Virus record (IMG/VR): IMGVR_UViG_2778261534_000002
From: a virus
Taxonomy: Duplodnaviria; Heunggongvirae; Uroviricota; Caudoviricetes
Direction: 5' to 3' (one strand)
DNA: 52,137 nt
This document shows, piece after piece, positions 23,845-40,709 of this stretch. Position numbers and translations under genes: made by a program. The notes under the pieces were generated by a model. That model was not told the origin of the DNA, ran no database searches, and was given only the letters and a program-made list of their open reading frames with translations. Within the stretch, counting starts at the first letter, position 1. Each line of letters begins with the position of its first letter.

Positions 23845-23931
23845 CTGATGTGCCGCAACTACAGTAGTGCGCGCTTTGCGGGGCTTGCTACAACCCTGTG
23901 TCGGAGTTCAGCACCGACCATCACAATCACT

Positions 23932-24018: not shown

Positions 24019-24111
24019 GTGCAACGTTAAGAGTATTTGGCTAATTAAGCGAATGCCGGAAGCAGAACCGGATCACCAAATGCGTACAGGCGTCATCGCC
24101 GCCCAGCCAGC

Positions 24112-24142
24112 CAAGTGCTCTTACCATTGCGGTGAATGCGGC
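24112..24142. repeat. 30-nt spacer repeat, copy 3
   Basis: CAAGTGCTCTTACCATTGCGGTGAATGCGGC. Confidence 0.5.
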
Positions 24143-24281
24143 TAAGCGCACGCGGAACAGTTAAAACAATCCTCCTTAGTGGTTAAGTCAAACATCCCGG
24201 CGTTAATTGTTAACTGGTTAACGTCACCTGGAGGCACCAGGCACCGCAGCTTTTTTATTCGGTAAATAATGGAGTGAGAGG

Positions 24282-24518
24282 ATGCAGAACAATCCGAACA
24301 AATGTCGAACGCTATGGGTGCGGTTATATATTTATGTCGTCCTCTGTTTGATTGTGTCACTGGTTCTGTATGTTTGGCTTTTGCCAAATATGATCTCATC
24401 TGACAGCACAATACTTGTATTGTTGGGAGTCCTTCTCGCGCTCATTTACCCGGCTTTTGCAGTAGTCTTTTTTCGTGAAAAAACCAGGAAATTGATTAAT
24501 GAAAAAAACGTTGATTAG
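24282..24518 (+). CDS. small integral membrane protein
   Basis: 78 aa, two hydrophobic helices, SD GGAGTGAGAGG before ATG; overlaps start of the SPFH lipoprotein gene. Confidence 0.45.
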   Translation: MQNNPNKCRTLWVRLYIYVVLCLIVSLVLYVWLLPNMISSDSTILVLLGVLLALIYPAFAVVFFREKTRKLINEKNVD

Positions 24519-25326
24519 TGCAGCGATTATTTTTGGTTCTTTATGTCTGACCGGATGCGATCGGGTAGAGCCAGGTAACGTAGGGATCAAAGTAAATAAG
24601 CTGGGGGATGATAAAGGTATCGGTGAAGTAGTTGGCGTTGGTCGCTACTGGACAGGCTTGAATACTGAAGTTTATATCTTCCCGACCTTTAAGCAAATGA
24701 AGACATACGATGAGCCGTTCAGCTTCCAGATGAGCGACGGAACAACCATTGGTTACCACATCGGCGTAGCCTACAAGGTTGATCCAGCAAAAGTCACAAC
24801 GGTATTTCAGACCTATCGCAAAGGTGTAGATGATATTACTGATACCGATCTACGCCAGAAGGTTGCAGATGCTCTGAACCGGTTAGCCAGCAAAATGACC
24901 ACCGACAAATTTATCGACGGTGGCAAATCTGAATTGCTTGATGCAGCCCTTAAAGACATTCAGGAAGAAATGACGCCCATCGGTATTCAGGTAATGAGCC
25001 TCTCATATGTGGGCAAGCCGGAGTACCCGCCAACCGTTATCGACAGCATTAATGCCAAAGTCACGGCGAACCAGAAAACTCTGCAACGCGAGCAGGAAGT
25101 CAAGCAACGCGAAGCAGAAGCCAACATGCTGCGCGCAGAAGCTGCTGGACAGGCCGATGCCATTCGCACAAAAGCCCAGGCTGAAGCTGATGCCATTCGT
25201 TTACGCGGTGAGGCTCTGCGCCAGAACCCCGGCGTTATGGAGTTGGAAGCGATCAACAAATGGAACGGAACGCTACCGCAGTATATGACCAGTAATACCG
25301 CTGTTCCGTTTGTTCCGGTGAAATAA
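24499..25326 (+). CDS. SPFH/band-7 (prohibitin-like) lipoprotein
   Basis: 275 aa; signal peptide with lipobox LTGC; SPFH-like core followed by Ala/Glu-rich coiled-coil tail. Confidence 0.65.
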   Translation: MKKTLISAAIIFGSLCLTGCDRVEPGNVGIKVNKLGDDKGIGEVVGVGRYWTGLNTEVYIFPTFKQMKTYDEPFSFQMSDGTTIGYHIGVAYKVDPAKVTTVFQTYRKGVDDITDTDLRQKVADALNRLASKMTTDKFIDGGKSELLDAALKDIQEEMTPIGIQVMSLSYVGKPEYPPTVIDSINAKVTANQKTLQREQEVKQREAEANMLRAEAAGQADAIRTKAQAEADAIRLRGEALRQNPGVMELEAINKWNGTLPQYMTSNTAVPFVPVK

Positions 25327-25339
25327 CCAAATAGATAAC

Positions 25340-25471
25340 ATGATGGAATTTTGGACGTTTGCCGACAAGAACCCTTGGTGGACATTTTTATTTCTGCTGG
25401 TGGTTGCATATGGGGTCGAGCAAGCAGCAAAAGCCTTACGCGGTCCTGGCAAAAAGCGTAAGCGGAATTAA
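25340..25471 (+). CDS. small membrane protein (43 aa)
   Basis: MMEFWTFADKNPWWTFLFLLVVAYGV...KKRKRN; single TM helix with basic tail; below the ORF-track length cutoff; found by eye. Confidence 0.3.
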   Translation: MMEFWTFADKNPWWTFLFLLVVAYGVEQAAKALRGPGKKRKRN

Positions 25472-25480
25472 CAGTAATCT

Positions 25481-25556
25481 GGCCCTTTAGCTCAGTGGTT
25501 AGAGCTGGCGACTCATAATCGCACGGTCACCGGTTCAAGTCCGGTAGGGGCCACCA
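25481..25556 (+). tRNA. tRNA-Ile2 (anticodon CAU, lysidine type) or tRNA-Met
   Basis: 76 nt; very close to E. coli ileX-type sequence as recalled (GGCCC.TTAGCTCAGTGGTTAGAGC...CTCATAA...GGTTCAAGTCC...GGGGCCACCA). Confidence 0.85.
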
Positions 25557-26586: not shown

Positions 26587-26978
26587 TGTACGGGACTACC
26601 AAATTAAGCACTCAACAGGCCACCAATATGGAGTGGTCTATCGCTAACTGTAAGATCGTGTCATGCAATGCCACGCGTACTGATGTGGGCCATAAAAGCA
26701 CTATAACAGGCTATCTAGTAATGACCACCAGGGGGATGAGGGTTAGATTTCGCTGGAAAGCAGAGCAAGTAACGCCATTCAGAGAGCCATCAATGCCGCT
26801 GCAGGTTGAGCAGGATTATCTATGTTTACCAGAAATAGATGGAGGAATGCTGGTGGAGTCTGATGGTAGTAAGGCTGATTTTGAAGCCAATTTGAAGCTG
26901 GCACAGGCCGTAATCAATAGTTATCGCGGAAAGTGGATCGCAAAAGTGAAACATGTTGTTCGTTTGTCTCGCTGGTAG
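26586..26978 (+). CDS. hypothetical protein
   Basis: 130-aa ORF whose start overlaps the preceding stop; no recognizable motif. Confidence 0.4.
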   Translation: MYGTTKLSTQQATNMEWSIANCKIVSCNATRTDVGHKSTITGYLVMTTRGMRVRFRWKAEQVTPFREPSMPLQVEQDYLCLPEIDGGMLVESDGSKADFEANLKLAQAVINSYRGKWIAKVKHVVRLSRW

Positions 26979-27086
26979 TATTAGGTGTTTAATATTAATT
27001 TTCTAATACAATCATCTTTTTACCAGTCTATACAGTTTTAACATTCTCATTATCATCCCCTCGGTCATTTCCTGCCCGGGGGATTA

Positions 27087-27479
27087 ATGGAACAAATCAG
27101 CAGCGCAGAAATTGCGGATATCATGATCAGGGCTGACTGCTATCTGACAGTCACTGAAATTACCACTCTCGCCAAAGAAAAATACCCTCATCTCCATGTT
27201 TCACGAGTAAGTGTAACTAACATCATTCGTCATTTTGTTCGTTCAAGCAGGGCAATCTGTGAGCTGGATGATCGTGTGTATCCACGAAAATACTGGCTAC
27301 ATGGTCTGAACGGATATCAGTTCAAGGTGCGCGGGCGCACGCCTGAATACGGTAGCTTACTGGTTAAAAACTGTAGCAGGAAATCAGTCGAACAGGCGCG
27401 AAAAGAGCAACGAGAGCTGGTGGACATGGCGAATAAGCTGTGGAATGCCGCCGTTAAAAAGCGTGGTGTTGCTTTATGA
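27087..27479 (+). CDS. Lpa-like late promoter activator (tentative)
   Basis: 130 aa immediately upstream of pacA and overlapping its start, the position of lpa (gene 10) in P1; no motif-level support. Confidence 0.3.
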   Translation: MEQISSAEIADIMIRADCYLTVTEITTLAKEKYPHLHVSRVSVTNIIRHFVRSSRAICELDDRVYPRKYWLHGLNGYQFKVRGRTPEYGSLLVKNCSRKSVEQARKEQRELVDMANKLWNAAVKKRGVAL

Positions 27480-28840
27480 GTCTGGTTAATTGGGAGGAGC
27501 ACCGCGCCCGCTTTATAGCGTTGCGTGAAGAAAAAGGGATCACTGTAAAGGAATACTGTGAGGAGCATGGCCTTAGCTTCAATACAGCCAGAAAGCATCT
27601 CAATATGAAAAAAAATGAGGTGCGGTCGCAGGTAAAGACAACAAAAAAAAGCACCAAATCACCTGAAAAAAAACGGGCGGGAAGAGCAACAAAAAAGCTG
27701 GAAGAGGGTGCAGAAAAAACAAAATTTACAGAAATTGACAATTCGCAGGGCGCAGGTTCTTTCCGAAGTATGCCGAGAAAGAAAACTTCGGATCATGAAA
27801 ATAATGCAAATAATAACAATGAGATAAAAGAATCTGTCAGGAGATCATTGCGCGAAAAAATGGCGAAAATGATCCCCGAAGAAGATAAAAGCGCCCCAAA
27901 AATTGAGGGATCTTCTGCAATGATCCCTGACGGTGCTGTGCAGCGTGCCACATTGCCCACTACGAATGTGGCTCGCGATATGATGAAGAACGGCGCAGAA
28001 GAACACCTGCGGTTAGCAATTCAAATGGCGCAAGAGCGCGCACTTCAGTATCAAAGCATTGTTGATCAGGAGGCCGAACGTCTACAGGCGGAAATAGACG
28101 CCTTGGGCGATAAAGAGCCAGAAGGAATGCACCCTGGGCAGCGCCTTCTCGGTCTAATCAGTGACGCGGCCTACTACATGAATGATTTTATCAGTAGGTT
28201 GGCAGCTATATATCAGTCCGAACAAAAGCTGCGACAGGGGGATGAAAAGCTTCGTCAGAGCGCTCGCCAGCAAGCATTCAAAGAGGCTGAGGCCAGAGAA
28301 AAACTCGAATTAGCACGCCTACAGGCCGAACAGCGTGGCAAAGAGATTGAATATCGCATTGGCGCTGACGCACGCGCAGCCAGAGTTATCGCCGCCGCTA
28401 TACGTATGCGTGAGCGCGAGGAACTGGATGATATCGGTGTTGCTGAATACATCGAGCGCCAGGGGGTCAGCGTCCCGGCTATCCTCGCGGCGCGCGCGGC
28501 GAAAGCTATCACTCTTCTCGAACCACCTGTTTCTGACGTCAATGATGTTGATGATGAACAGCTGGACAAAGAGGCAAGGGAGTTTGCAACGCTTCAGGCT
28601 AACCATCCGCAATGGCTGGCAGAGCGCCGGGCGGATGTGGCAACCATTGTTGAAGAATTGGGGTGCGGAGATTACGACCGCAATGGCGAGCGTAAAGCTG
28701 GAGAATTCGAGGCCAACGACGAAGAGCTGGATATTGACCCTTCGGCAACGGCTGAAATTTACGGTGATTATGATGTATCTGATGCAGGGTATGACGCCGG
28801 AGATGATGATATCGCGATAGAACCGCCGGAGGATGATTAA
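27476..28840 (+). CDS. pacA: terminase small subunit PacA
   Basis: 454 aa; N-terminal HTH-like region, Lys-rich linker, acidic C-terminus; directly precedes and overlaps large terminase gene; contains GATC-rich candidate pac site. Confidence 0.7.
   Translation: MSLVNWEEHRARFIALREEKGITVKEYCEEHGLSFNTARKHLNMKKNEVRSQVKTTKKSTKSPEKKRAGRATKKLEEGAEKTKFTEIDNSQGAGSFRSMPRKKTSDHENNANNNNEIKESVRRSLREKMAKMIPEEDKSAPKIEGSSAMIPDGAVQRATLPTTNVARDMMKNGAEEHLRLAIQMAQERALQYQSIVDQEAERLQAEIDALGDKEPEGMHPGQRLLGLISDAAYYMNDFISRLAAIYQSEQKLRQGDEKLRQSARQQAFKEAEAREKLELARLQAEQRGKEIEYRIGADARAARVIAAAIRMREREELDDIGVAEYIERQGVSVPAILAARAAKAITLLEPPVSDVNDVDDEQLDKEAREFATLQANHPQWLAERRADVATIVEELGCGDYDRNGERKAGEFEANDEELDIDPSATAEIYGDYDVSDAGYDAGDDDIAIEPPEDD
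27790..27926. other. candidate pac site (cluster of Dam GATC hexamers)
   Basis: five GATC-containing hexamers (GGATCA, AGATCA, TGATCC, GGATCT, TGATCC) within about 135 bp in the 5' part of pacA; P1 pac is a cluster of TGATC(A/G) hexamers inside pacA. Confidence 0.4.
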
Positions 28841-30348
28841 TGGCTGGCGGGCGCAAGATTAAATGCGTCACCAGCGATCCACGCTGGCGCGATATGGTAA
28901 TCAAATACCGCTACAACTTTACCCAGGCTGTTGTCGATATTTTTGGGATGTTCCCCTCCCACCAGCAGCAGCAGATCATTCAGTCAGTGCAGGAAACGGG
29001 GAGTAGGACTACCGTCACGTCCGGACACGGAACGGGGAAGTCGTCCCTTACCGCGATGTTGCTGTTGATTTTTATGATCCTGTTCCCCGATGCCCGTGTC
29101 ATCATTGTTGCTAACAAGATAGGCCAGGTAAAAACAGGCGTATTCAAATACGTTAAACAGTATTGGGCGAATGCAGTTAAGCGTCATGGGTGGTTGCAGA
29201 CCTATTTTGTCCTCTCTGACACCATGTTTTATGAGCGCTCCCGTAAGGGGATTTGGGAAGTTCTCTGCAAAGGTTATCGACTCGGCAACGAAGAAGCGCT
29301 GGCGGGGGAACACGCGGCACATTTGCTTCTAATTCTGGATGAAGCATCTGGTATATCTGATAAGGCGATCGGCGTAATGACCGGTGCTCTTACTGAAGAA
29401 GATAACCGGATGTTGATGCTATCCCAGCCAACAAGGCCAAGTGGTTATTTCTACGATTCGCACCATTCTCAAGCAAAAACCCCAGACAACCCGAAAGGGA
29501 TCTGGACAGCAATTGTTCTTAACTCGGAAGAATCACCGTTCGTCACACCACAATTCATCAAGCAGAAGCTTCTGGAATATGGTGGGCGCGATTCTATTGA
29601 GTATATGGTCAAGGTGCTTGGTCAGTTCCCACGAGAAATTAACGGCTATTTGCTTGGTCGTGATGAATGCGATCGCGCTGCTCGCCGCAAGGTGTTGTTG
29701 GAGAAAAACTGGGGATGGGTGGCAACGGCTGACGTTGGTAATGGGCGAGATAAGTCGGTCCTCAACATCTGCAAGGTATCTGGTCACAGGGATAAGCGGC
29801 GCGTTGTTAACTTTAAGGTAATGGAGATGCCTGGCACTATGGACCCATTGGCCTTTGCTGACTTTATATATAACGAATGTACGCCGGAAAAATACCCGAA
29901 TATAACAATCGCGGTTGATGCCGATGGTTTTGGTTCTGATACGTGTGCGCAGTTGGTGCGTCGTGGTGCGAACCCGGTACGTATTCGGTGGGGAAAACCC
30001 ATGTTTGCGAACAAAGACAGGGAGCGATTTGTTAATCAGCGTGCCTACGCAAATATTATGGCGCGTGATGCCATAAAGTCAGGGCGTATGCGGATAGACA
30101 GTGACCCTAAAACGGCAGAGCAAGCGTCAAAAATCCCCTTTTTACTGAATGAGGAAGGGAAAATGGCGATGATGCGCAAAGAGCACATGCGGCAAAAGCT
30201 AAACATCAAATCGCCTGACCGATGGGATACCTACTGCTTCACTATGCTGGTGGACTATGTGCCTGCTAATGAAGATATTGGTGCCGAAATGGCAACTTTC
30301 CGAGATCAGGTTCTGGCGGATATCGAAATGCCAGATCTGGATATATAA
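28840..30348 (+). CDS. pacB: terminase large subunit PacB
   Basis: 502 aa; Walker A SGHGTGKSS, Walker B-like LLLILDEASG; C-terminal nuclease-like region. Confidence 0.85.
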   Translation: MAGGRKIKCVTSDPRWRDMVIKYRYNFTQAVVDIFGMFPSHQQQQIIQSVQETGSRTTVTSGHGTGKSSLTAMLLLIFMILFPDARVIIVANKIGQVKTGVFKYVKQYWANAVKRHGWLQTYFVLSDTMFYERSRKGIWEVLCKGYRLGNEEALAGEHAAHLLLILDEASGISDKAIGVMTGALTEEDNRMLMLSQPTRPSGYFYDSHHSQAKTPDNPKGIWTAIVLNSEESPFVTPQFIKQKLLEYGGRDSIEYMVKVLGQFPREINGYLLGRDECDRAARRKVLLEKNWGWVATADVGNGRDKSVLNICKVSGHRDKRRVVNFKVMEMPGTMDPLAFADFIYNECTPEKYPNITIAVDADGFGSDTCAQLVRRGANPVRIRWGKPMFANKDRERFVNQRAYANIMARDAIKSGRMRIDSDPKTAEQASKIPFLLNEEGKMAMMRKEHMRQKLNIKSPDRWDTYCFTMLVDYVPANEDIGAEMATFRDQVLADIEMPDLDI

Positions 30349-30368
30349 AGCCCCGCGATGCGGGGCCG
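30349..30368. terminator. bidirectional intrinsic terminator
   Basis: GCCCCG-cgatg-CGGGGC flanked by A/T-rich sequence, between convergent pacB and c1-locus gene. Confidence 0.6.
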
Positions 30369-30375
30369 GTTGTGA

Positions 30376-31413
30376 TTACCAGAGCTTCGCGGCGTACTGC
30401 GTTTGGGGGAATGTGTATCCGTAACGTTCTTCGATTGCTTTGCCGTATTTTTTACGAGCTTCATTCAGTTTAATGCCGGTCAGGTCGTCTCCAGAGGCCA
30501 TCATTACGTCTAACAATTCCAGATCCATTTTATCCAGCCTTGCCATTGCTTCACGTGATGTACGTATCTTACGCTCAATGATATGGCGAATAGCCGGATC
30601 GGCATCCTCCAGCATCTTAGCGGATTTCTGCTTAAGGCTTTCATTGCGAATATCGATGTTCCTTAAGATGTACGACTTCGCAACGTAGCTTGGCTGGTGT
30701 TTTTCCAGGTCACGAACACGATATAAGTTAAAATCGCCGAGAAGGCTGCAAGGTACCGATTCGACGCCAGAATAAATTGTAATGCTCCGGCGTTCACCAA
30801 CATTATTGACAACGGGGATCGTTGTCTTCGGTAGTCTTGCGAAAACCAATGCGCCATGTGCGCCAACTCTAAAGCGAGAAAGGGCATTGCTGCCTTCGAT
30901 GTTTGTTGTCAGCACAACATCTGTATATGCCTCTTTACGCGCCCGGTAGATCTCGCCTTCAGGCTCAGCTTCAAAGAAGCGCTGTTCTTCTTCAAGAGCA
31001 CCTACAATTTGAGAAAAAACCCTATTTTTCAGGCTTTTCTTTATGATTTTGTCGTATTTTTTGAGCAATTGTTCACGTGTAAATGTACGTGTTGTTGTAG
31101 CGCTTTGCACAACAACATGCGTGCTTTGATTGGTGTCCTCAATGATGAATGGGATCGGAGAATATACAGACTCAACAATGTTCGACGCTTTGCCGTCGGC
31201 ATCGCGGCACATGTCAACGAAGGCTTTCCATTCAGCAAGACATTTTTCAGCTTCTTCTAATATGTTTTGGTCATGCGTTAATGCAACATGGCGGAATTCC
31301 TCGCCAGCATAACTGGTATCATGGAAAACAGAGTTTGCGACCACCAGCTCTTTCCACCGTTCAGCGGTTTGCAGGAACCGTTTGTACTCTTTCTCGATCG
31401 ACTTCTTACTCAT
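30376..31413 (-). CDS. c1-locus protein, candidate immunity regulator of unknown family
   Basis: 345 aa at the position of c1/coi in P1 (between pacB and the lox-equivalent site); no similarity to P1 C1 as I recall it; operator-like motif 15-29 nt upstream of its start. Confidence 0.5.
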   Translation of the reverse strand: MSKKSIEKEYKRFLQTAERWKELVVANSVFHDTSYAGEEFRHVALTHDQNILEEAEKCLAEWKAFVDMCRDADGKASNIVESVYSPIPFIIEDTNQSTHVVVQSATTTRTFTREQLLKKYDKIIKKSLKNRVFSQIVGALEEEQRFFEAEPEGEIYRARKEAYTDVVLTTNIEGSNALSRFRVGAHGALVFARLPKTTIPVVNNVGERRSITIYSGVESVPCSLLGDFNLYRVRDLEKHQPSYVAKSYILRNIDIRNESLKQKSAKMLEDADPAIRHIIERKIRTSREAMARLDKMDLELLDVMMASGDDLTGIKLNEARKKYGKAIEERYGYTFPQTQYAAKLW

Positions 31414-31427
31414 TATTCCTACTCGAT

Positions 31428-31442
31428 TTAGTTTTCTAACAT
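31428..31442. promoter_or_regulatory. operator-like 15-bp motif (consensus copy)
   Basis: TTAGTTTTCTAACAT, reverse complement of ATGTTAGAAAACTAA; just upstream of the c1-locus gene. Confidence 0.45.
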
Positions 31443-31513
31443 AAAATTACTATGACAAATTTATGTCGAATAACAGAGTGAGTAAAGGATCGAACTGTGA
31501 TTTTTTGTCATCA

Positions 31514-31528
31514 ATTTTAGAAAACCAA
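31514..31528. promoter_or_regulatory. operator-like motif (near match)
   Basis: ATTTTAGAAAACCAA, 12 of 14 positions match the consensus. Confidence 0.3.
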
Positions 31529-31623
31529 CTGTATAAACCACACTTCGCAAATTAAAGACCATGAAGGCAACGTGTTACTGGTCAAAATCAATCTATGATG
31601 GATTAAAAAAAATCGCCATTTTG

Positions 31624-31655
31624 TAACTTTAAATAATTGGCATTATTTAAAGTTA
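31624..31655. other. rox: rox-type recombinase target site
   Basis: TAACTTTAAATAAT-TGGC-ATTATTTAAAGTTA: perfect 14-bp inverted arms; reverse complement equals the published rox sequence as I recall it; 150 bp upstream of the recombinase gene. Confidence 0.85.
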
Positions 31656-31807
31656 AGCTATAATCATGGGTGGATGATCAGTGTTGACATCACTGAAAAT
31701 ACGTGCCTCGAATCAAAGGTTTGAATCTTGAAAATTAACTTATAGCTACCCTGTCATTTTTATATTTTTCGCGTAGCGTCATCTGTATATAGAGGTTAAA
31801 TAGTTTC

Positions 31808-32836
31808 ATGAGTGAATTAATTATCTCTGGCAGCTCCAGTGGTTTTCTGCGCAACATTGGCAAAGAGTACCAGGAGGCCGCAGAAAACTTTATGCGGTTC
31901 ATGAATGACCAGGGGGCTTACGCGCCTAATACTTTGCGCGATCTCCGGTTAGTGTTTCACTCCTGGGCGAGATGGTGTCACGCTCGCCAGCTCGCCTGGT
32001 TCCCGATCTCTCCAGAGATGGCCCGCGAGTATTTTCTTCAGCTGCATGATGCTGATCTGGCTTCGACCACCATTGATAAGCACTACGCCATGCTGAACAT
32101 GCTGCTTTCGCATTGTGGCCTTCCGCCACTTTCGGATGATAAAAGTGTTTCTCTGGCTATGCGGCGCATCCGGCGTGAAGCGGCAACGGAAAAAGGCGAA
32201 CGAACAGGCCAGGCTATACCGCTGCGGTGGGACGATCTGAAACTGCTCGACGTCCTGTTGTCCAGGTCAGAACGGCTGGTGGACCTGCGCAACCGGGCTT
32301 TTCTCTTTGTTGCATACAATACGCTGATGCGCATGTCTGAAATCTCGCGTATTCGTGTAGGAGATCTGGACCAAACAGGTGACACTGTCACGCTACATAT
32401 TTCACACACGAAGACAATAACGACCGCCGCCGGGCTTGATAAGGTGCTTTCCCGTCGCACTACTGCTGTGCTGAATGACTGGCTGGATGTTTCCGGGCTT
32501 CGTGAACATCCTGACGCGGTGCTGTTCCCGCCGATACACCGTAGCAATAAGGCCAGGATTACGACAACGCCCCTTACTGCACCTGCAATGGAGAAAATAT
32601 TTAGTGACGCCTGGGTGTTGCTGAATAAAAGAGATGCCACTCCAAACAAGGGGAGATACCGGACGTGGACCGGGCATAGTGCTCGTGTCGGGGCTGCTAT
32701 CGATATGGCAGAAAAGCAGGTGTCTATGGTGGAGATCATGCAGGAAGGAACCTGGAAGAAACCGGAAACACTTATGCGGTATCTGCGCCGTGGCGGCGTG
32801 TCTGTGGGGGCTAATAGCCGCCTGATGGATTCATAA
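31808..32836 (+). CDS. dre: Cre-family tyrosine recombinase (Dre-type)
   Basis: 342 aa; Cre-like blocks WFPISPEMAREYFL, VSLAMRRIRRE, RNRAFLFVAYNTLMRMSEISRIRVGDL, WTGHSARVGAAIDMA; adjacent rox site. Confidence 0.9.
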   Translation: MSELIISGSSSGFLRNIGKEYQEAAENFMRFMNDQGAYAPNTLRDLRLVFHSWARWCHARQLAWFPISPEMAREYFLQLHDADLASTTIDKHYAMLNMLLSHCGLPPLSDDKSVSLAMRRIRREAATEKGERTGQAIPLRWDDLKLLDVLLSRSERLVDLRNRAFLFVAYNTLMRMSEISRIRVGDLDQTGDTVTLHISHTKTITTAAGLDKVLSRRTTAVLNDWLDVSGLREHPDAVLFPPIHRSNKARITTTPLTAPAMEKIFSDAWVLLNKRDATPNKGRYRTWTGHSARVGAAIDMAEKQVSMVEIMQEGTWKKPETLMRYLRRGGVSVGANSRLMDS

Positions 32837-32851
32837 ATTAAATTTCTAACA
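32837..32851. promoter_or_regulatory. operator-like 15-bp motif
   Basis: TTAAATTTCTAACAC directly after the dre stop codon. Confidence 0.35.
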
Positions 32852-32909
32852 CATCTTTTTAGATTGTTATCTTTGCTGTAAAGTACCCTCGCCTATTTCG
32901 GAGGGTGCT

Positions 32910-33254
32910 TTGCAGAGTCAAATCACGGAATCAAGACGCTTTAAGGTGGATGGTTACACCGTAACCTTCGCCGCTGGTGTTAAGAACAGTCATGCTGTCG
33001 TTGTGTTCGGCATCATGACCGGGCTTGAGGCCGTCCCTGTGTTTACCCTCGAAAAAAACTGGCGAAATCTGGAGGAAGCAGAAAGCTACGTCCGGAAAGT
33101 AACCATCATTGCCGCCGAAAAACTCCTGGCCCACTATCAGGAAAATTATCGCACTATGGTCGAGAAGATTAATCTCGCTTTCACTCGCCCCACTACCGGC
33201 TTTATTGCACCGGATACTAATGCAGGTCGCTATCCTGCAAGGGGGCGTCGGTGA
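32910..33254 (+). CDS. hypothetical protein
   Basis: 114-aa ORF with TTG track start after a hairpin; start uncertain. Confidence 0.3.
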   Translation: MQSQITESRRFKVDGYTVTFAAGVKNSHAVVVFGIMTGLEAVPVFTLEKNWRNLEEAESYVRKVTIIAAEKLLAHYQENYRTMVEKINLAFTRPTTGFIAPDTNAGRYPARGRR

Positions 33255-33727
33255 AAACTTATTACACATCTCTGAATTGTTACCCGTCTTCCTATCCAGA
33301 ATTATCCGGGAAGCTGTTAGCTCTATTAGCTAAAGCACCTACGGAATGGTTTAAGCCAGTCGTTATCAATCCACACTTCCTGGATTACGGATCTGTTCGT
33401 ACTCGTAACGAACTCAAAAACCTACTGGCGCATGGATTCATTCGACACCGTGCCGGGAAAGGCTATCAGTTAGCGATTGCGCCAGAAGAGGCCGTGCGGC
33501 TATTCGCATATCGTGACAGCCAGACAAAAGCTCGGGTAATAGCTCAAATACTTCATAACGGCAGCACCTATGCCCGCCAGTTTGGCGGCGACACGTCGCA
33601 GTTCTTGCGGGCGGTGCGATCGCTGGAGGAGCAAGGAGTTATTGAAAGTTCCTGTCTTCCTGTTCCTACCGTTCCACATATCAAACGTCGGGTTTACACC
33701 TTCACGCAGAGAGCTAAAAAACAATGA
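33251..33727 (+). CDS. hypothetical protein
   Basis: 158 aa from GTG with SD AGGGGG; overlaps neighbours by 4 nt on both sides. Confidence 0.4.
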   Translation: MKTYYTSLNCYPSSYPELSGKLLALLAKAPTEWFKPVVINPHFLDYGSVRTRNELKNLLAHGFIRHRAGKGYQLAIAPEEAVRLFAYRDSQTKARVIAQILHNGSTYARQFGGDTSQFLRAVRSLEEQGVIESSCLPVPTVPHIKRRVYTFTQRAKKQ

Positions 33728-34218
33728 TTTACGTAAAAGTGAAACGCCTACATCCGGCAGCAAAACTTCCAGCTTATGCCACCTCCGGATCGGCGGCGAT
33801 GGATTTTGAGGCTGTTGAAATAAAACCATGCGTCGATAGCAATGGTGCAATTTCCTCAAGCTGGTGGGTGTATACCGGACTGGCTATGGAGATCCCGCCC
33901 GGCTGGTGTCTGAAACTCTATCCGCGATCCGGATTGGGCTGCAAAAAACATACTCGCCTGGCTAACTGCGTAGGAATTATCGACTCCGATTATCGCGGCG
34001 AAATCATGGCAAAACTGATTACTGATCCCGGCGGGGAAGGCGTTTGTCTCAAGCCTGGAATGGCTGTCATGCAAGGAATTTTTGAACGAGTTGAACAAGT
34101 CTCACTAGTCGAGGTTGAGGAACTCAACGAAACGGAACGTGGTGCTGGTGGCTTTGGTAGCACATCGGAAGGCCACTTTGAAATTAAGCGTTCACCGCTT
34201 CAGTACGAAAAGTTATAA
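33724..34218 (+). CDS. dut: dUTPase
   Basis: 164 aa; dUTPase motifs PAYATSGSAAMD, YPRSGLG, GIIDSDYRGE, GGFGSTSEG. Confidence 0.8.
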   Translation: MIYVKVKRLHPAAKLPAYATSGSAAMDFEAVEIKPCVDSNGAISSSWWVYTGLAMEIPPGWCLKLYPRSGLGCKKHTRLANCVGIIDSDYRGEIMAKLITDPGGEGVCLKPGMAVMQGIFERVEQVSLVEVEELNETERGAGGFGSTSEGHFEIKRSPLQYEKL

Positions 34219-34232
34219 GCAGAGAAAAGACT

Positions 34233-34910
34233 ATGAATAACATGGCAACGAAAGAGCTTTTTAAGTTCCTTCCCAAATACAAAGCTCACAAAAACGTTAG
34301 TGCATCGAAAATCAAAAATGTTGTTATTTTCGGAGTAACTGATGCCCCACTTTGGGGCTGCATCGAACTCGTTGAACCAAAAGGGGCAACAGTTTGTGTT
34401 GACGCAATGTTTTTACAAAAACACCGACCAAAAACTGGCGGGTATCTGATCGTTTATGAAAACGGTTATCTGTTCTATGCCCCGGAGAAACCATTTGAGG
34501 AACGCTATGGCCTGGTTAACGACGCCTCCAAAAATGGAACCACGGTCATCATTACGGATGACAACGGCGTGATGATTAATCTTACCGGGAGCGTAACTAT
34601 TTCTGCTGGTGGCATCACCACCCAGCAAGAAGAAATCGACCTTGAAGCAGCCGACTTTTCTGACGCGCTGATGTGGCTGAAGGATGGCAAGAAAGTTGCT
34701 CGACGCGGGTGGAACGGCGAAAACCAATTCTGCTGGCTGGTTCCTGAAGGACAGTACCCGGCACGAATGGAAGCCATTAAGGGATATTTCCCCGGCGACC
34801 TCGTTCCGTATGGTGCTTATTTCGCCTTAAAAAATGCACAAGGTGTAGTTGTTCCGTGGGTTCCTTCTGTAGGCGACTTACTGGCATGTGACTGGTTTGT
34901 AGTGGAGTGA
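34233..34910 (+). CDS. protein with C-terminal DUF2829-like domain
   Basis: 225 aa; C-terminus ALMWLKDGKKVARRGWNGENQFCWL ... PWVPSVGDLLACDWFVVE is the clearest DUF2829-like domain in the window. Confidence 0.5.
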   Translation: MNNMATKELFKFLPKYKAHKNVSASKIKNVVIFGVTDAPLWGCIELVEPKGATVCVDAMFLQKHRPKTGGYLIVYENGYLFYAPEKPFEERYGLVNDASKNGTTVIITDDNGVMINLTGSVTISAGGITTQQEEIDLEAADFSDALMWLKDGKKVARRGWNGENQFCWLVPEGQYPARMEAIKGYFPGDLVPYGAYFALKNAQGVVVPWVPSVGDLLACDWFVVE

Positions 34911-34916
34911 TTTAAC

Positions 34917-35693
34917 GTGGAAAATACTAAAGCAATTCAATACCGCTTGCGTAATGGCCTGCTGGTGGCTGTTAACGCCGACATGTCACTGCCGTTTGAC
35001 ACGATTGAACGTACTATCATGACGTATCTCGGCTTTAATGAAGAGCTGAATGAAGAGCATGGCGTAGCTATATGGAGCGATGCAGAAAGCGGCGTTCATC
35101 GTTACATCACCGCCAGGGGCAAAGACTACTCTCTGGAAGAACTGTTTACCCTTGCACAGTCTTTCGAATGTGTAGCATTAGACATGTTTAATGATCCTGC
35201 TATAGCGCAACGACTTATACGCGAGCTTGGGCTATCCGTTACACCAATTATCTTTAAGAATGGCAGCCTGACTGGCACATGGCGCGTAGAACGCATCTCA
35301 AACTACCTTCCATATAACCGACAGTTAAATGGAGTAATCTCCGGCGTTAATCAGCCCGTAGCGTGTGAAAATGTAAACCTGGTTGTCGCTGTTTTGGCAA
35401 CCGCATGTCGTGTTATCGGTTTGGCTAAACAGGCATTTATTCATTTCCCAAATGGTGCAGAAGGTAGCGCAGAGATTATCGCGTGTGATTTCGAATTTAC
35501 TTGGATGCTACGCGAATATCTGGACCAAACAGTATTCCGTGCCGAAGAACTGGATATGTATATCACGTCAACGATTCCAGACGATGTGCGAGCAGAAGCA
35601 ATCGCTACAGCCAGGGCGAAATGCCGTGCGGCGATTGCAGAACGGGCCAAAGAAGAACAGTCCAATGATACAGCGGCAGAAGAGGTGAAATAA
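34917..35693 (+). CDS. hypothetical protein
   Basis: 258-aa ORF followed by strong terminator; no recognizable motif. Confidence 0.45.
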   Translation: MENTKAIQYRLRNGLLVAVNADMSLPFDTIERTIMTYLGFNEELNEEHGVAIWSDAESGVHRYITARGKDYSLEELFTLAQSFECVALDMFNDPAIAQRLIRELGLSVTPIIFKNGSLTGTWRVERISNYLPYNRQLNGVISGVNQPVACENVNLVVAVLATACRVIGLAKQAFIHFPNGAEGSAEIIACDFEFTWMLREYLDQTVFRAEELDMYITSTIPDDVRAEAIATARAKCRAAIAERAKEEQSNDTAAEEVK

Positions 35694-35696
35694 CAA

Positions 35697-35728
35697 AAAG
35701 CCCGCTTGGTATGGCGGGCTTCTTTTCA
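35697..35728. terminator. bidirectional intrinsic terminator
   Basis: AGCCCGC-ttggtatg-GCGGGCT flanked by A-run and TCTTTTC, between convergent genes. Confidence 0.75.
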
Positions 35729-35944
35729 AATACTGGAAGCACTTTGTCTGCTACCAAGCATTCTCTGTTTAAGCACAACCATTTCCTGACGGCATAACAC
35801 AGCAATAGCGGTCCTGGCACCAATTTGCTTACCAACCAGGTATTGCTTTACCTCGCGGCGACTCACGCCATCAAGAAGCATCTTTAACGCTTCACGGGAC
35901 AACTTGTTGTATTTACGTGCCATTAATCTACTCCGCAGAACCAT
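35726..35944 (-). CDS. hypothetical small protein downstream of doc
   Basis: 72-aa ORF overlapping doc 3' end; basic, HTH-like. Confidence 0.3.
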
Positions 35945-36308
35945 ACAATCTACGTAACGTGTCGGCGACAGAAGATACAGATATCTCGCCAGTCGCAGCG
36001 CCTACAGTAAGGTCTGCCAGTTCAGGTGAATCAAATACCTGCACCCCGTTACGGCGTAGAAATAGCAGCGCACTGTTTAGCGCGGTACGCTTATTGGCAT
36101 CATTGAATATATGCCCTCTCGCTGTAGCCACCAGGTAGGTGGCGGAGACTTCGAAAAGGTCGCTGATCTCTTCGTAGGCAACTCTGGCCTGAACTCTCCC
36201 GATAATGGCCTCTGCCCTACCCGGATCTGACATTCCCGGCAGGCCACCGTAGCGGCTTATATTCGCATCATGAAGCGCAATAAGTTCTTCCGGTGATATA
36301 TGCCTCAT
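35928..36308 (-). CDS. doc: Doc toxin (Fic-fold kinase) of phd-doc addiction module
   Basis: 126 aa; matches P1 Doc as recalled, including HIFNDANKR Fic-like motif; overlaps phd stop. Confidence 0.9.
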
Positions 36309-36529
36309 TATCGGTTAACCAGTTCCTTGTTGGTGGAGTCCAGGGTGTCAAACAGGGATGCAAATTCGGCATCCAGCGCCGCTTTTTTGTAGGCTTCAAA
36401 AGTAGCCTTGCTAACAATTACTGCTGGCTCACGGCCTCTGCGGGTGATTTCAACCTCTTCCCCGGCTTCAACATTGTTGAGCACTTCAGAAAGGTTGCCG
36501 CGCGCGGTACGGAAGTTAATGGATTGCAT
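36308..36529 (-). CDS. phd: Phd antitoxin
   Basis: 73 aa from [13 protein letters not shown] (track ORF starts 2 codons earlier); matches P1 Phd as recalled; GTGTACAC-type palindromes upstream. Confidence 0.9.
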
Positions 36530-36637
36530 AAACACCTCGTGTGCTCGTTATGTGTACGCAATTATAGGTTTTAATGATGCTGAATACCACTTCTTGGTGC
36601 CTTAAATCCTCGAGATGCAGTCTTGCAATTGCTGGGA

Positions 36638-37060
36638 TTAAGCAGAATAAGTGGTTGGAATTCTGAGCAGTAATCCAATCTTGGCTATGTGCTCATATGG
36701 CAGCTCTCCGGTTTTACCGTCATGTATCGAGGCTATCAGATTCAATTCTTGCGCCGCTTTACGAATTTCAGTTTCTGATGGAACAAGGCGAAAACCGATG
36801 TGTAACATTTTGATATAGAAAGGTAATAGTTCGTACTTCACCCGTAACTGTGCTGCCGCATCTTTCAAATCATGGATGATTTCTTGTTTTAAGTCAGAGC
36901 GGGGATTCGATAGCTTTGCTTGGTTAGACAATAACAGATGCGATATTTCCCCCAACTGTTCCTTGAATGAAATGTAAGACTCAACCCCCTTGATGATGAG
37001 TCGACCTAGGACAAAAACGCTTACTCCAGTGACAACAGTGACAAAAGCAGACGAACTCAT
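36638..37060 (-). CDS. membrane-anchored hypothetical protein
   Basis: 140 aa; N-terminal hydrophobic helix FVTVVTGVSVFVLGRLII; between humD and phd. Confidence 0.45.
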   Translation of the reverse strand: MSSSAFVTVVTGVSVFVLGRLIIKGVESYISFKEQLGEISHLLLSNQAKLSNPRSDLKQEIIHDLKDAAAQLRVKYELLPFYIKMLHIGFRLVPSETEIRKAAQELNLIASIHDGKTGELPYEHIAKIGLLLRIPTTYSA

Positions 37061-37194
37061 TCGCGTACCTAAAAAGAGAATTATAACCTCATCTTATCTT
37101 CAAGTGAGTAACCGCGTCTAATGGGAGGAATCATTTAAATGGCCAGGGCGATATAGATCCAGTCATGCCTCTCTATGGTTTCTCTGAAAACAAA

Positions 37195-37584
37195 TCATAT
37201 AGCAGGACTATCATCAAATTCACCGCCCCTGGCGTCATTGATAATGTGGGTGATCACACCAAAAACAGCATTACTGCCCGTGTATCCATCGTCATCTACT
37301 GGTAACGCCTCTTTCTTCCCGGTGCTTAAATCCTCCAGGTGCTGGCGCGGATACTTCCTGTATCTCTTTATGCGATATTCACCCTCCATAGCGCACACAA
37401 GCAGCGAACCATCAACTGGAGTAAGCGAAGAATCAACCACCAGCAAAGCACCCTGCAATATTCCCTCACGGTGATGGCTATCAGCTGCCCGCATGAAGTA
37501 GGTTGCTGATGGATGCCTGATTAGTTGTTGATCAAGAGAAATTCGGCTTTCAACATAATCCGCCGCAGGAGAAGGGAAGCCCAT
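37195..37584 (-). CDS. humD: HumD (UmuD-like S24 peptidase)
   Basis: 129 aa; LexA/UmuD-type fold with Ser-Lys dyad context; LexA box 19 nt upstream. Confidence 0.8.
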   Translation of the reverse strand: MGFPSPAADYVESRISLDQQLIRHPSATYFMRAADSHHREGILQGALLVVDSSLTPVDGSLLVCAMEGEYRIKRYRKYPRQHLEDLSTGKKEALPVDDDGYTGSNAVFGVITHIINDARGGEFDDSPAI

Positions 37585-37602
37585 AGCGTTTTACCTCAAT
37601 GA

Positions 37603-37622
37603 TACTGTTTATTCATACAGTA
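37603..37622. promoter_or_regulatory. LexA (SOS) box
   Basis: TACTGTTTATTCATACAGTA matches CTGT-N8-ACAG consensus. Confidence 0.65.
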
Positions 37623-37774
37623 TACATTGAAAAGGCATAGTTTGTGAAAGCGGGGTTTGTAAGCAACACCGCTGGCGGCAAGGTCTACGTTCACCTTGTC
37701 TCGCTCTTCCTGGCTTTTAGCTGCTATATTTCGATCTGACACAAGAAACCTCCAGGAGTTAGTGGATCGGGCAC

Positions 37775-38125
37775 ATGCACAACAACGTTCTCAATGTTAG
37801 CCGTTCAATTCAGACAATCAGAGACTGCACCAGTGTGGTGGCATCAATCCCATTGCGAAACAGCATAGACGAACTGCAAATTCGTGTATTGAATCTGAAT
37901 CAGGCTAATAAGCAATTGCGCTTTATTTTGACGCTGAAAAGTGAAACAGAGGGGATAAAGCACAGCGTAAAAGTGTTTTCTGAGGCCATTCTGCTTAATG
38001 GGAAGCTCCGGCATCTGGTAAGGCCAGAACGTCAATATCCTGACGTCCTGGCGCGTGAAAAAGACCTTCTTTCTGAAGTTCAGGATAGGGTGATCGATTT
38101 CGTCAAATGCTATCCCCTGCATTGA
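37775..38125 (+). CDS. hypothetical protein
   Basis: 116-aa ORF; competes with an antisense ORF (37844..38122); coding status uncertain. Confidence 0.3.
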   Translation: MHNNVLNVSRSIQTIRDCTSVVASIPLRNSIDELQIRVLNLNQANKQLRFILTLKSETEGIKHSVKVFSEAILLNGKLRHLVRPERQYPDVLAREKDLLSEVQDRVIDFVKCYPLH

Positions 38126-38394
38126 GGGCAGGTGTTCCCTTCCGCAAAGTAGGGAAAACTGCTATCAAGTTCATCACACCATCTGCGATGGTGGTAGCAC
38201 CAAAACGCCTCCCACGGTGCACGGAAATACTTCATCCACCAGGACACTCGATCAGGTATATCTGCTGGTGGCAGTTCTTCTGGCAATAATTTGCCTGATA
38301 ATTCCCTTTCCGCCCGCGACAGCATTTTTTTGAGGCTCGCGTTCTCTTTTTCAAGCTCATCTACGCGCACCTGTAATTCAGCTTTCGTTGGCAT
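38110..38394 (-). CDS. small coiled-coil protein with Cys/His-rich C-terminus
   Basis: 94 aa from ATG 38394 (SD GAGGTGG); CYHHRRWC ... CPQC zinc-binding-like tail; last gene of leftward operon. Confidence 0.4.
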   Translation of the reverse strand: MPTKAELQVRVDELEKENASLKKMLSRAERELSGKLLPEELPPADIPDRVSWWMKYFRAPWEAFWCYHHRRWCDELDSSFPYFAEGNTCPQCRG

Positions 38395-39544
38395 GGTCCA
38401 CCTCATGCTTTTCAGCCACCAGCGGCAATAAAGCCCTGGCCATCTTATGAACCAATAGTGCATCAATAATGCCAAGTGTATGCCCCGGCTTAATGTTTAA
38501 TGCCGCCTCAAGGTGACACCTTTCCAAGCCACTTTTCTCGGCTTGTTTATGATGATCTGGCGTAATAACGTCGCCTAAAACACGGCTAATTCTTTCTCGT
38601 AATTGCTGGGTGCCAGCACACTTGATCGCTGTATCGTGGAGACGGTTAACCAGTTCGCGATAAACATGCGGCTTAATTCGGATACGTTCACCGGTGACGC
38701 CCTTTCCTGGCGCTGGCACCGAACTATCCGGAATATCCGGATAGTTGCCAGCCAGTCTACGCAAAACGGCCTTAACAGCCTCAATACGGTCATCATCGCA
38801 ATTTTCCAGAGTATCTATGCGATCGAGCATGATGATGGCGTTATCAATATCAGGATTGCCGGTCCACTCATTACCGCGATTGGATTCGGCAGCCTGGTTG
38901 CCGCGTACTGGTTGATTATCGGCTTTACCCAGTCTATCGTTGCTGCATGAATGCCCTTCCAGCCAGGCCAATGCTTGTCGCATGAAATACGCAATATGTT
39001 TGCCGTGGTAATCGTCTTCATTGATGTGAAAAGCGATACTGCGGATGTATTCAATTGCGTTTTCAATAGCCTCCGGCGTTATCGGCGCTGACATATTTTG
39101 ATTTTGGAGTGCCAAGACGCGGCTGGCATCCTCAACACCTTTAACGGCATCTGCGCAGTAGTTATAGCGATTGCATTCCACTAACTTCTGCTTGAGGTTT
39201 TCAATTGCTTGCGCGACATCAGCCTGCATTACCGGAACTGGCGGAGTGGTATATAGTTTTCGGCATTTGTTTATCCAACCGGCATGGTCAGGCGTGTCTG
39301 TAAAGCGCAAATCGTTTTCGTAGCCCTCACGACTACGTTCTTTCCATTCCGTCCACGGAACACCGCTATTCCAAGTGGGGCGAGTGCAGGACTGATACAG
39401 AACAGGTTCAGCTTCCAGCGCTGCCAGAGCAATCCGTGCCAGTTCTTCCGCTTCTTCTGCTGGCAGTACAACGTTGCTACCAGGTCCGTATGTTTCGCGC
39501 CACTGCTTGATTGCCAGCAGTCGCTCTTTGGTAATAGTGGTCAT
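38378..39544 (-). CDS. hypothetical protein
   Basis: 388-aa ORF in leftward operon; no recognizable motif. Confidence 0.5.
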   Translation of the reverse strand: MTTITKERLLAIKQWRETYGPGSNVVLPAEEAEELARIALAALEAEPVLYQSCTRPTWNSGVPWTEWKERSREGYENDLRFTDTPDHAGWINKCRKLYTTPPVPVMQADVAQAIENLKQKLVECNRYNYCADAVKGVEDASRVLALQNQNMSAPITPEAIENAIEYIRSIAFHINEDDYHGKHIAYFMRQALAWLEGHSCSNDRLGKADNQPVRGNQAAESNRGNEWTGNPDIDNAIIMLDRIDTLENCDDDRIEAVKAVLRRLAGNYPDIPDSSVPAPGKGVTGERIRIKPHVYRELVNRLHDTAIKCAGTQQLRERISRVLGDVITPDHHKQAEKSGLERCHLEAALNIKPGHTLGIIDALLVHKMARALLPLVAEKHEVDHANES

Positions 39545-39750
39545 TTGTTAATCCTCAAAACTTTATGCCCGGGCGCAAAAGCACGCGTTTTGTCTTTGCT
39601 TATGCGCCAGCCATCCTTGCGCGCCTCTTTTGCACAACCAGACCATGACGTACCGATATACTCACCGAAGTCTGGCACTGGATATACACCTTCCGTACAC
39701 TGGCGGCAGTCACAATAGAGATGCATGGTGTAACTTGCGGCAATAGCCAT
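39541..39750 (-). CDS. small Cys-rich protein
   Basis: 69 aa from ATG 39750; CDCRQC...C motif; RBS region AAAGGAGAGTGATATGG duplicated at the next gene. Confidence 0.4.
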   Translation of the reverse strand: MAIAASYTMHLYCDCRQCTEGVYPVPDFGEYIGTSWSGCAKEARKDGWRISKDKTRAFAPGHKVLRINK

Positions 39751-39751
39751 A

Positions 39752-39946
39752 TCACTCTCCTTTAGTGCGCAAATGGTTTTTCCAGCGGTTTTGCGCCGCG
39801 CTGGGCTTTTTGCAAAAACCACAATCCATCATCCCGTAATATTTCATCAACCCCATCCGTCGGTTGCTGAGTCTCACCCACTGCCAGACGCCAGGAGCGT
39901 TTCTACGAACTAACAGAATCTTTGCTTTACGGTTGTTGGTTGCCAT
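39752..39946 (-). CDS. small basic protein
   Basis: 64 aa from ATG 39946; same duplicated RBS; MDCGFC motif. Confidence 0.35.
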   Translation of the reverse strand: MATNNRKAKILLVRRNAPGVWQWVRLSNRRMGLMKYYGMMDCGFCKKPSAAQNRWKNHLRTKGE

Positions 39947-39947
39947 A

Positions 39948-40709
39948 TCACTCTCCTTTGATGCGAATGCCAGCGGCGCGTGGCACATTAACTTCCACGA
40001 TGCGCACAGTTGGTTTGTACATCTCAATCGCTGTCAGCCAGTCAGCGCCGGTCATATGCTTTTCTGCATCGCCATTAGTCCATTGAACCGGCACACCAAT
40101 AGCTTTCATCGCAATTTCTATTTCCCCGGCAATGGCGCTTTTCCCGCAACCAGTAAAACCAGAGACAACGACAAGAACTTCGCCTTTGGCTGGTTTTATT
40201 TCCCGTGCTTCCAGTTCTGCAATGCGCTTCTCTGCGGCTTCCAGCTTCTCGCGCATATCGTCAACGTACTCGACCAGAGATCCGCCAGCAGGAATTTCGC
40301 ATTCCTCGACCAGTTGGAAGTAGATATCAGCTGCGGCCCGTGTGTTGCTATGCCTAGCGTCGCCCATCTCACCTTCACGAAGAGCATCGCGTTCGGCGGT
40401 AAGATTGGCTATTTTGCTGTCTTTGCCTTCCAGCTCAACGCGCAGCCTCCCAACCGTAAGCGCAATATCCTCGTTCTCCTGGTCGCGGCGTTTGATGTAT
40501 TGCTGGTTTCTTTCCCGTTCATCCAACAATGCCAGCGCGATATCTGGCGAAAAGTGCTTCATAAAATCGTTAAGCGCATTAATTCGCTGATCGAAAGGCA
40601 TTACAGGTGCTTCACCGGCAATTTTTGTTTTTTCAGCGATTTCACGAAGCTTTTGATAATCAATCTGGCTCACTGGTTGCCTCCTTTGCGGAGTTGCGCT
40701 TCGATGCAC
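39948..40709 (-). CDS. coiled-coil protein with C-terminal Walker A-like motif
   Basis: 253-aa ORF (start uncertain); central coiled coil; GFTGCGKS P-loop-like motif near C-terminus. Confidence 0.45.
   Translation of the reverse strand: MHRSATPQRRQPVSQIDYQKLREIAEKTKIAGEAPVMPFDQRINALNDFMKHFSPDIALALLDERERNQQYIKRRDQENEDIALTVGRLRVELEGKDSKIANLTAERDALREGEMGDARHSNTRAAADIYFQLVEECEIPAGGSLVEYVDDMREKLEAAEKRIAELEAREIKPAKGEVLVVVSGFTGCGKSAIAGEIEIAMKAIGVPVQWTNGDAEKHMTGADWLTAIEMYKPTVRIVEVNVPRAAGIRIKGE

Follow-up and report, generated by a model that had tools for sequence, protein, structure and literature searches.

Dre/rox on a D6-like plasmid prophage: a near-identical copy of the known system, with a candidate promoter overlapping rox

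A stretch of viral DNA of 52,137 nucleotides (IMG/VR record IMGVR_UViG_2778261534_000002; the whole stretch is hereafter called the window) carries a 32-bp rox site and, next to it, the gene of a Cre-type tyrosine recombinase that differs from the Dre protein of D6 by a single residue. Judged by sequence comparison, and with a probability of about 0.93, these elements make up a functional Dre/rox system of the D6 lineage, and the replicon that carries them is a D6-like plasmid prophage of E. coli/Salmonella, ca. 92 kb in size. Dre/rox is already known and is found here in near-identical form, so that no new kind of system is described. The analysis suggests one detail beyond the known description, namely a conserved promoter embedded in rox, to which a role in dre expression is putatively assigned.

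The rox site and the Dre protein

Positions 31624-31655 of the window read TAACTTTAAATAAT-TGGC-ATTATTTAAAGTTA. The two arms of 14 nt, the left one proximal to c1 (TAACTTTAAATAAT, 31624..31637, plus strand) and the right one proximal to dre (ATTATTTAAAGTTA, 31642..31655, plus strand), are perfect inverted repeats of each other, and are separated by the asymmetric 4-bp spacer TGGC (31638..31641, plus strand), which sets the polarity of rox. Wild-type rox has been printed as 5'-TAACTTTAAATAATGCCAATTATTTAAAGTTA-3' (PMC4777119) and has a 14-4-14 layout (PMC4777119; PMC12331466). String comparison showed that the reverse complement of the window site is letter-identical to this published sequence; the published form, with GCCA as the spacer, lies on the minus strand of 31624..31655 and the sense strand of dre shows TGGC. 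The crossover region of rox, with an asymmetric core of just 4 bp, is considered a functional counterpart of the loxP spacer of 8 bp (PMC4777119).

The site is also identical at 32 of 32 positions to the rox annotated in D6, the bases at -1 and +1 being different. As annotated in D6, it is placed in the gap between c1 and dre, of 394 bp, and the distance from rox to the ATG of dre is 152 bp in both the window and D6. When the whole window was searched with the rox arm pattern allowing up to 3 mismatches, this single site was found, and the same search gave 0 matches in 100 dinucleotide-preserving shuffles. No second rox or pseudo-rox was detected in the window beyond a lone half-site-like match at 10600-10613 (2 mismatches, no partner), which is within chance, and no loxP-like site was detected either, there being no match to a loxP arm with 3 or fewer mismatches.

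Gene dre (31808..32836, plus strand) encodes a protein of 342 amino acids that aligns without gaps to D6 Dre (AAV84949, AY753669), with 341 of 342 residues identical and G11S as the sole change. At the DNA level, 37 of the 1029 nucleotides of dre differ from D6, 36 of them synonymously and 1 non-synonymously. Identity to Cre of P1 is 41% over 322 residues, and Cre chains were the best matches of the window protein among solved structures (E = 5e-69), no entry for Dre having appeared in the PDB copy searched. The Pfam Phage_integrase profile (PF00589) scored 62.6 bits (cut-off, 27.1), and the N-terminal SAM-like domain (PF02899) 21.6, slightly under its cut-off of 22.3. The catalytic set is complete, with R175, H290, R293, W316 and Y325, numbered according to PMC4777119, and K202, the lysine equivalent to K201 of Cre. 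On these alignments, the window protein is Dre, specifically its S11 allele. At least 1000 contigs in public collections carry the exact S11 sequence, which is labelled there 'integrase' or 'tyrosine-type recombinase/integrase'.

These results bear out the sequence-only reading, which had described a 32-bp site with perfect 14-bp inverted arms, equal on the opposite strand to rox, beside a 342-aa protein with Cre-like conserved blocks, and had on this basis called the enzyme a Dre-type recombinase. The interval that it assigned to the system, 31624-32836, extends exactly from the first base of rox to the last base of the dre stop codon. Neither of the two departures that it had taken into account, a protein devoid of tyrosine recombinase catalytic residues and a site differing from rox on alignment, was encountered, since the full residue set is there and the site shows no difference.

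Dre is reported to recombine rox with no cross-reaction with loxP, and Cre to be inactive on rox (PMC4777119; PMC3553980; PMC12331466). Recombination of rox with rox by the S11 allele would be expected from this literature on the D6 protein, transferred across G11S alone. Alignments of Dre and Cre begin at residue 22-23, so that residue 11 falls within the unaligned N-terminal stretch. Because of this location outside the Cre-aligned part, an effect of G11S appears unlikely and the substitution is probably neutral. The fact that the protein is one amino acid off the tested Dre, together with the existence of related cassettes as stranded fragments among IS elements, could be taken to mean that the window holds a decaying or inactive remnant, impaired through G11S or through unseen regulatory changes. 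However, the open reading frame is intact, the S11 allele is as widespread as indicated above, and the site, the promoter hexamers described below and the catalytic residues are all preserved. Moreover, the 36 synonymous differences from D6 against a single non-synonymous one point to continuing purifying selection on Dre. An inactive remnant is thus scarcely credible, and a functional copy is the reading that we retain.

The D6-type replicon and its gene order

The D6 genome (MF356679) covers 96% of window positions 1-25000 with 97.6% identity and most of positions 31640-50000 with 95.9% identity; the match is split at rox because the D6 record starts in the centre of rox. A separate record of D6 immC covers 26716-34032 with 98.6% identity. 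Taken over the genome, D6 and the window are ca. 96-98% identical, with some segments unshared. By contrast, P1, P7, RCS47 and similar phages matched 4-17% of each half of the window.

In a plasmid collection, 105 records contained at least 80% of window positions 28000-36000. The best of them, 99.9% identical over the 8 kb around dre, were CP157128 and CP157120 from E. coli and CP111090 from Salmonella, all of ca. 92 kb. Positions 7213-52137 of the window are collinear with CP157128, a circular E. coli plasmid of 92,135 bp, in three long blocks of 99.6%, 98.3% and 96.7% identity and in short pieces at 44468-46664 that are 93-96% identical. The annotation of this plasmid includes portal, head and lytic replication proteins, Icd-like proteins, lpa, pacA and terminase, as well as repressor, recombinase, dut, phd/doc, Ref, baseplate and tail genes. 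According to the collinear CP157128 and to the D6 annotation, the modules of P1/D6-type phages (pacA/pacB, lpa, c1, portal/head, lytic replication and phd/doc) are present in the window, and two matches to C4 RNA correspond to C4 antisense RNA immunity. The CP157128 annotation shows no plasmid replication or partition genes in the stretch corresponding to window positions 7213-52137; such genes are probably located in the ca. 40 kb of the replicon beyond the window.

The region is present in 124 (about 2%) of 5,426 complete E. coli genomes, and 123 of its 126 places in them are on plasmids, mostly of 87-97 kb. The nearest relatives are circular plasmids of 90-95 kb, the window itself being a 52-kb fragment. 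D6-like plasmid prophages are also known in Salmonella Typhimurium ST213 (PMC6799933). These data bear on whether Dre/rox might work as an integrase-type system with a chromosomal pseudo-rox target, the window then being part of an integrated prophage. Integrase is the usual function of tyrosine recombinases in the Pfam family of the window protein, and 'integrase' is how this protein is annotated publicly. However, in addition to the plasmid location of nearly all places in complete genomes and to the circular form of the closest relatives, the one chromosomal match among those listed was 73% identical and spanned 24% of the query, and D6-like phage genes continue on both sides of rox without a chromosomal junction. 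Integration into the chromosome is therefore considered extremely improbable, and the window is best regarded as part of a D6-like plasmid prophage.

One further observation concerns the diagnostic value of the pair. A multidrug-resistance plasmid of 53.5 kb was found to carry an exact rox and a Dre 89% identical to that of the window, flanked by fragments of IS1 and IS30. Since they can be stranded in this way on a resistance plasmid, rox and dre together are not fully diagnostic of a phage-plasmid, and it is the similarity along the whole window that makes the D6-type placement secure. The assignment to a D6-type phage-plasmid and the proposal that replicon type explains the divergence from P1, both made from the sequence alone, agree with these comparisons: the window is of the D6 lineage, and P1 consequently matches it in patches only. 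So does the accompanying view that Dre/rox is a known system useful as an identifier of the replicon.

The surroundings of rox are those of D6. On one side, lpa, pacA, pacB and c1 are found in both genomes, and on the other side orf2, orf3 and dut. The c1-type phage repressor gene (30376..31413, minus strand), named c1 in D6 and 'phage repressor protein' in CP157128, is divergent from dre. Genes pacA and pacB (27476..30348, plus strand), annotated in D6 and CP157128 as terminase subunits, lie ca. 4 kb upstream of rox, with the pacB open reading frame listed at 28840-30348 on the plus strand, and this resembles the pac-c1-lox/rox arrangement of P1 and D6. The copy in the window thus shares with that of D6 (AY753669, AAV84949; MF356679) the protein, the complete rox, its location and the flanking genes, and is distinguished from it by the 37 nucleotides of dre (36 of them silent), by G11S and by changed bases adjoining rox on both sides.

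Comparison with Cre/loxP of P1 showed a more distant likeness. Both recombinases have the same catalytic residues, and in P1 as in D6-type genomes the site has the c1 region on one side and the recombinase gene on the other. The sites also have the same polarity relative to this gene, the conventional orientation of both lox and rox being on the strand opposite to it. The systems differ in that loxP is organized as 13-8-13 (34 bp) and rox as 14-4-14 (32 bp), and in that P1 has cra between lox and cre, at a distance of 419 bp, whereas the window has no cra and a distance of 152 bp. At 41% identity, the window protein is a homologue of Cre rather than Cre itself, and it is accompanied by rox and not by loxP.

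More remote relatives, also Cre-type recombinases, are found in other genera. Panto, from Pantoea sp. aB, is reported to be 52% identical to Dre and to recombine rox, and the arms of its pox site are one base off those of rox (PMC4957104). Among species-representative genomes no close Dre was found; 74 of them have homologues that share 41-47% identity with the window protein and occur in Pantoea, Mixta, Rahnella and Erwinia. All of these are far more distant than D6 Dre and are carried in other genera by large plasmids or chromosomes.

A candidate promoter overlapping rox

A sigma-70 promoter-like site directed towards dre overlaps rox (31637..31664, plus strand) and agrees with the consensus at 11 of 12 positions. 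Its -35 hexamer, TTGGCA (31637-31642), extends the rox spacer by one base at each end, and its -10 hexamer, TATAAT (31659-31664), is separated from the right arm of rox by 3 nt; the gap of 16 nt between the hexamers corresponds to the right arm plus 3 nt. A promoter scan of 31350-32950 reported this site as the sole one, and it was alone in matching the sigma-70 consensus at 11 or more of 12 positions when both strands of the 52-kb window were considered. Simulated sequences of the same composition gave 0.67 such matches per window, and P is ca. 0.02 for the 394-nt intergenic region. Inspection of the sequence nearer to dre identified TTGACA at 31683, which was discarded as a promoter because it has no acceptable -10 element at 16-18 nt.

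Conservation is consistent with a promoter at this position. TATAAT is invariant and at the same distance from rox in each of the 33 loci, selected by protein, whose Dre shares 70% identity or more with that of the window, and the 3 bases that precede it on the rox side and the 5 bases that follow it are all variable among eight haplotypes. Relatives with Dre 55% identical have no TATAAT there. Consensus match and conservation are the two grounds on which we infer that dre would be transcribed from a promoter that has the rox spacer in its -35 element, with a predicted leader of ca. 140 nt. Binding of Dre to rox would then occlude the promoter and shut off synthesis of Dre, so that the level of the recombinase would be tied to the occupancy of its site. 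That rox doubles in this manner as a control element of dre is put forward tentatively, as a possibility to which we give somewhat less than even odds. Within the searchable literature no mention was found of a promoter embedded in rox or of autoregulation by Dre; the original description of Dre, from 2004, is outside the reach of that literature and may have it.

P1 offers no equivalent, as its three annotated cre promoters are all downstream of lox and none overlaps it, in contrast to the D6-type candidate, which overlaps rox. In Tn3, the recombination site of the resolvase, res, overlaps a promoter and the resolvase represses its own gene. If the promoter assignment in rox holds, the Tn3/gamma-delta resolvase acting at res would resemble the putative autoregulation of Dre in that the site overlaps the promoter of the recombinase. 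However, this resolvase is a serine recombinase, of an unrelated enzyme family and with another site architecture, and represents an analogy and not a relative.

Another interpretation of the same data is that the palindrome is mainly transcriptional, as a promoter or operator of dre or an operator of C1, and that its identity to rox is incidental. The site does overlap the strongest sigma-70-like match of the window, and it does lie inside the divergent control region of c1 and dre. Nevertheless, a letter-identical site has been shown experimentally to be recombined by Dre (PMC4777119; PMC12331466), and the candidate C1-type operator, TTTTCTAACA, is a different sequence located elsewhere: of its 16 copies, which include those at 31432, 31515 and 32842, none is in rox. 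The operator consensus of P1 C1, ATTGCTCTAATAAATTT, gave one match, with 3 mismatches, a result not above chance, and P1-type operators do not, for this reason, explain the rox region. A mainly transcriptional palindrome is accordingly rated as very improbable. A promoter role would be an additional layer on the recombination site rather than a competitor of it, since both functions can coexist, and the palindrome is best understood as a genuine rox.

Natural variation, selection and biological role

The variation of rox was analyzed in 35 related IMG/VR loci, picked by protein and not by site. Exact rox was found in 21 of them. A change from A to G at left-arm position 9 (A9G), where the window has the canonical form, was found in 12 loci, including L128. 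As to changes in the spacer, GGGG occurred in one locus (L118), TAGC in another one with Dre 70% identical (L131), and TGGA together with a change in the first base of the right arm (TGGA-G) in L128, in which Dre is 89% identical. Two loci with Dre 55-56% identical (L133 and L134) had TAACTTTATATAAT GTCA GTTATATAAAGTTA, with a symmetric change in both arms. Of the 33 loci whose Dre reaches 70% identity, 32 had the right arm in unaltered form, and the order of c1, site, recombinase and orf2, with c1 pointing away from the site on one side and the recombinase and orf2 on the other, was kept in all loci checked, down to 55% identity of Dre.

Selection on rox was apparent from its local context. 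Identity between the window and D6 is 93.6-95.2% across 31466-32215, which comprises rox and the 5' part of dre, and 97-100%, mostly above 98%, across lpa-pacA-pacB-c1. The preservation of rox at 32 of 32 positions within the most divergent of these patches points to purifying selection on the site. The E. coli plasmid NZ_CP068593 carries a relative in which rox is again identical at 32 of 32 positions, with Dre 89% identical and a DNA identity of ca. 78% in the gene region; under neutrality, the chance of 32 unchanged bases at 78% identity is approximately 0.78^32 = 3.5e-4.

The mechanism of recombination would be that expected from homology to Cre. Each rox would be occupied by two Dre monomers on its two 14-bp arms, and two occupied sites would synapse as a tetramer, in which Tyr325 would cleave and exchange the strands in two successive pairs via a Holliday junction, with the asymmetric spacer setting the polarity of the reaction. 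Recombination needs two copies of rox, because the monomeric genome has one. Such pairs of sites would arise in two situations. A plasmid dimer generated by homologous recombination could be resolved by Dre to monomers, which would make the low-copy prophage partitionable, and infecting DNA that is terminally redundant, with rox at both ends, could be circularized by Dre. In P1, Cre/lox takes part in plasmid dimer resolution and in the circularization of infecting DNA. By analogy with P1, dimer resolution and circularization are likely the roles of Dre/rox as well; a direct test of either in D6 was not found in the searchable literature.

The distance of ca. 4 kb between rox and pacA-pacB is like that of lox in P1, and both this distance and the shared polarity of lox and rox fit the roles in multimer resolution and circularization. 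The argument from the geometry of pac and rox has the value of an analogy only, because no cluster of TGATCR hexamers characteristic of a P1-type pac site was present in pacA, the number of TGATCR motifs in the whole window being that expected by chance. The rox-dre cassette stranded on a non-phage resistance plasmid is likewise in keeping with a plasmid-maintenance role that would be useful outside a phage.

For the biology of these elements, the main value of Dre/rox in the window is as a marker, which indicates that the DNA comes from a plasmid prophage of the D6 lineage and not from P1 itself. Plasmid prophages of this lineage are present in about 2% of complete E. coli genomes and are common in Salmonella. 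A promoter embedded in rox, if genuine, would be relevant to the regulation of dre in the prophage. In addition, the variants of rox, and those of Dre at 55-94% identity, that occur in natural populations represent pairs of recombinases and sites that could be mined for genome engineering.

Natural variation of the rox–dre pair

Variants of rox, the target site of the Dre recombinase, were found in nature adjoining variants of Dre itself, in IMG/VR loci where the site lies ca. 152 nt 5' of the recombinase ATG (L102, L106, L108, L110, L115–L118, L126–L128, L131, L133 and L134). The commonest change was an A-to-G substitution at position 9 of the left arm (A9G), present in 12 loci, some of which encode a 99.7%-identical Dre. 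The canonical spacer, TGGC on the dre strand, was replaced by GGGG in L118, by TGGA together with an altered right-arm base in L128 (Dre 89% identical), and by TAGC in L131 (Dre 70% identical). The site of L133 and L134, TAACTTTATATAAT-GTCA-GTTATATAAAGTTA, carries the same change in both arms, lies beside Dre proteins of 55–56% identity, and is possibly Panto/pox-like. Variant sites and the Dre variants neighbouring them are candidates for natural heterospecific pairs.

Within the window, the segment 31466–32215, comprising rox (31624–31655) and the 5' half of dre (31808–32836, plus strand), showed 93.6–95.2% identity to Escherichia phage D6, and the adjoining genes from pac to c1 showed 97–100%, mostly above 98%. 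The raised divergence of the segment suggests that a short patch was acquired from a different phage-plasmid of the lineage. Some other contigs carry unrelated sequence in place of the ca. 100 bp left of rox, with D6-like sequence on both sides.

An exact rox accompanied by a dre gene encoding an 89%-identical product was also observed at 9027–10238 of the 53.5-kb E. coli plasmid NZ_CP068593, within a resistance region that is rich in IS26 and has aac(3)-IId in its vicinity. There, rox and dre form a lone cassette flanked by IS1 and IS30 fragments, indicating that the cassette is also present outside intact phage-plasmids. Copies of this type (ca. 78% nucleotide identity) were found in ca. 26 complete E. 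coli records, on plasmids of 49–218 kb.

Dam hexamers, the pac region and tRNA genes

No P1-type cluster of TGATCA/G hexamers was detected in or near pacA (27476–28840). A single copy lies inside the gene, at 28063, and copies at 27124 and 27269 are located upstream of it, within lpa. Across the entire window, the hexamers were as numerous as expected by chance. Given a pacA devoid of the cluster and a count at chance level, the pac site of the D6-type lineage is probably built differently from that of P1.

A single TGATCA, a Dam site, was located at 31675–31680, 20 nt past rox; in P1, Dam sites lie within the cre regulatory region. It is closely followed by a TTGACA hexamer at 31683, after which no acceptable −10 hexamer was found.

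Positions 23281–25556 contain five genes for tRNAs, namely Arg-TCT, Tyr-GTA, Thr-TGT, Ser-TGA and Met-CAT. The tRNAs annotated in the matching region of P1 and P7 records are tRNA-Asn and tRNA-Thr.

Candidate operators and C4 immunity loci

The 10-nt motif TTTTCTAACA occurred, with at most one mismatch, 16 times in the window against 3.9 expected, a number reached in 0 of 100 shuffles. Sites were located at 8656, 9856, 14261, 19758, 20800, 22049, 22205, 26999, 31432, 31515, 32842, 42924, 42944, 47870 and 48527. Several precede lpa, c1, the lytic-replication gene and the C4/immunity region; another is found shortly past the dre stop codon. C1 operators of P1 are spread in similar fashion, yet the P1 operator consensus showed no enrichment in the window. 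The TTTTCTAACA sites are possibly the operator set of the D6-type C1 repressor.

Two separate C4 antisense-RNA loci were found, so that two immI-like immunity modules are present in the window. The first (9962–10168) comprises an a1/b1 target element (9962–10014) and C4 (10083–10168); the second (49074–49284) comprises an isrK-like sRNA (49074–49152) and C4 (49197–49284), with ash-family and Icd-like genes after them. Over short stretches, the two modules share 85–92% identity.
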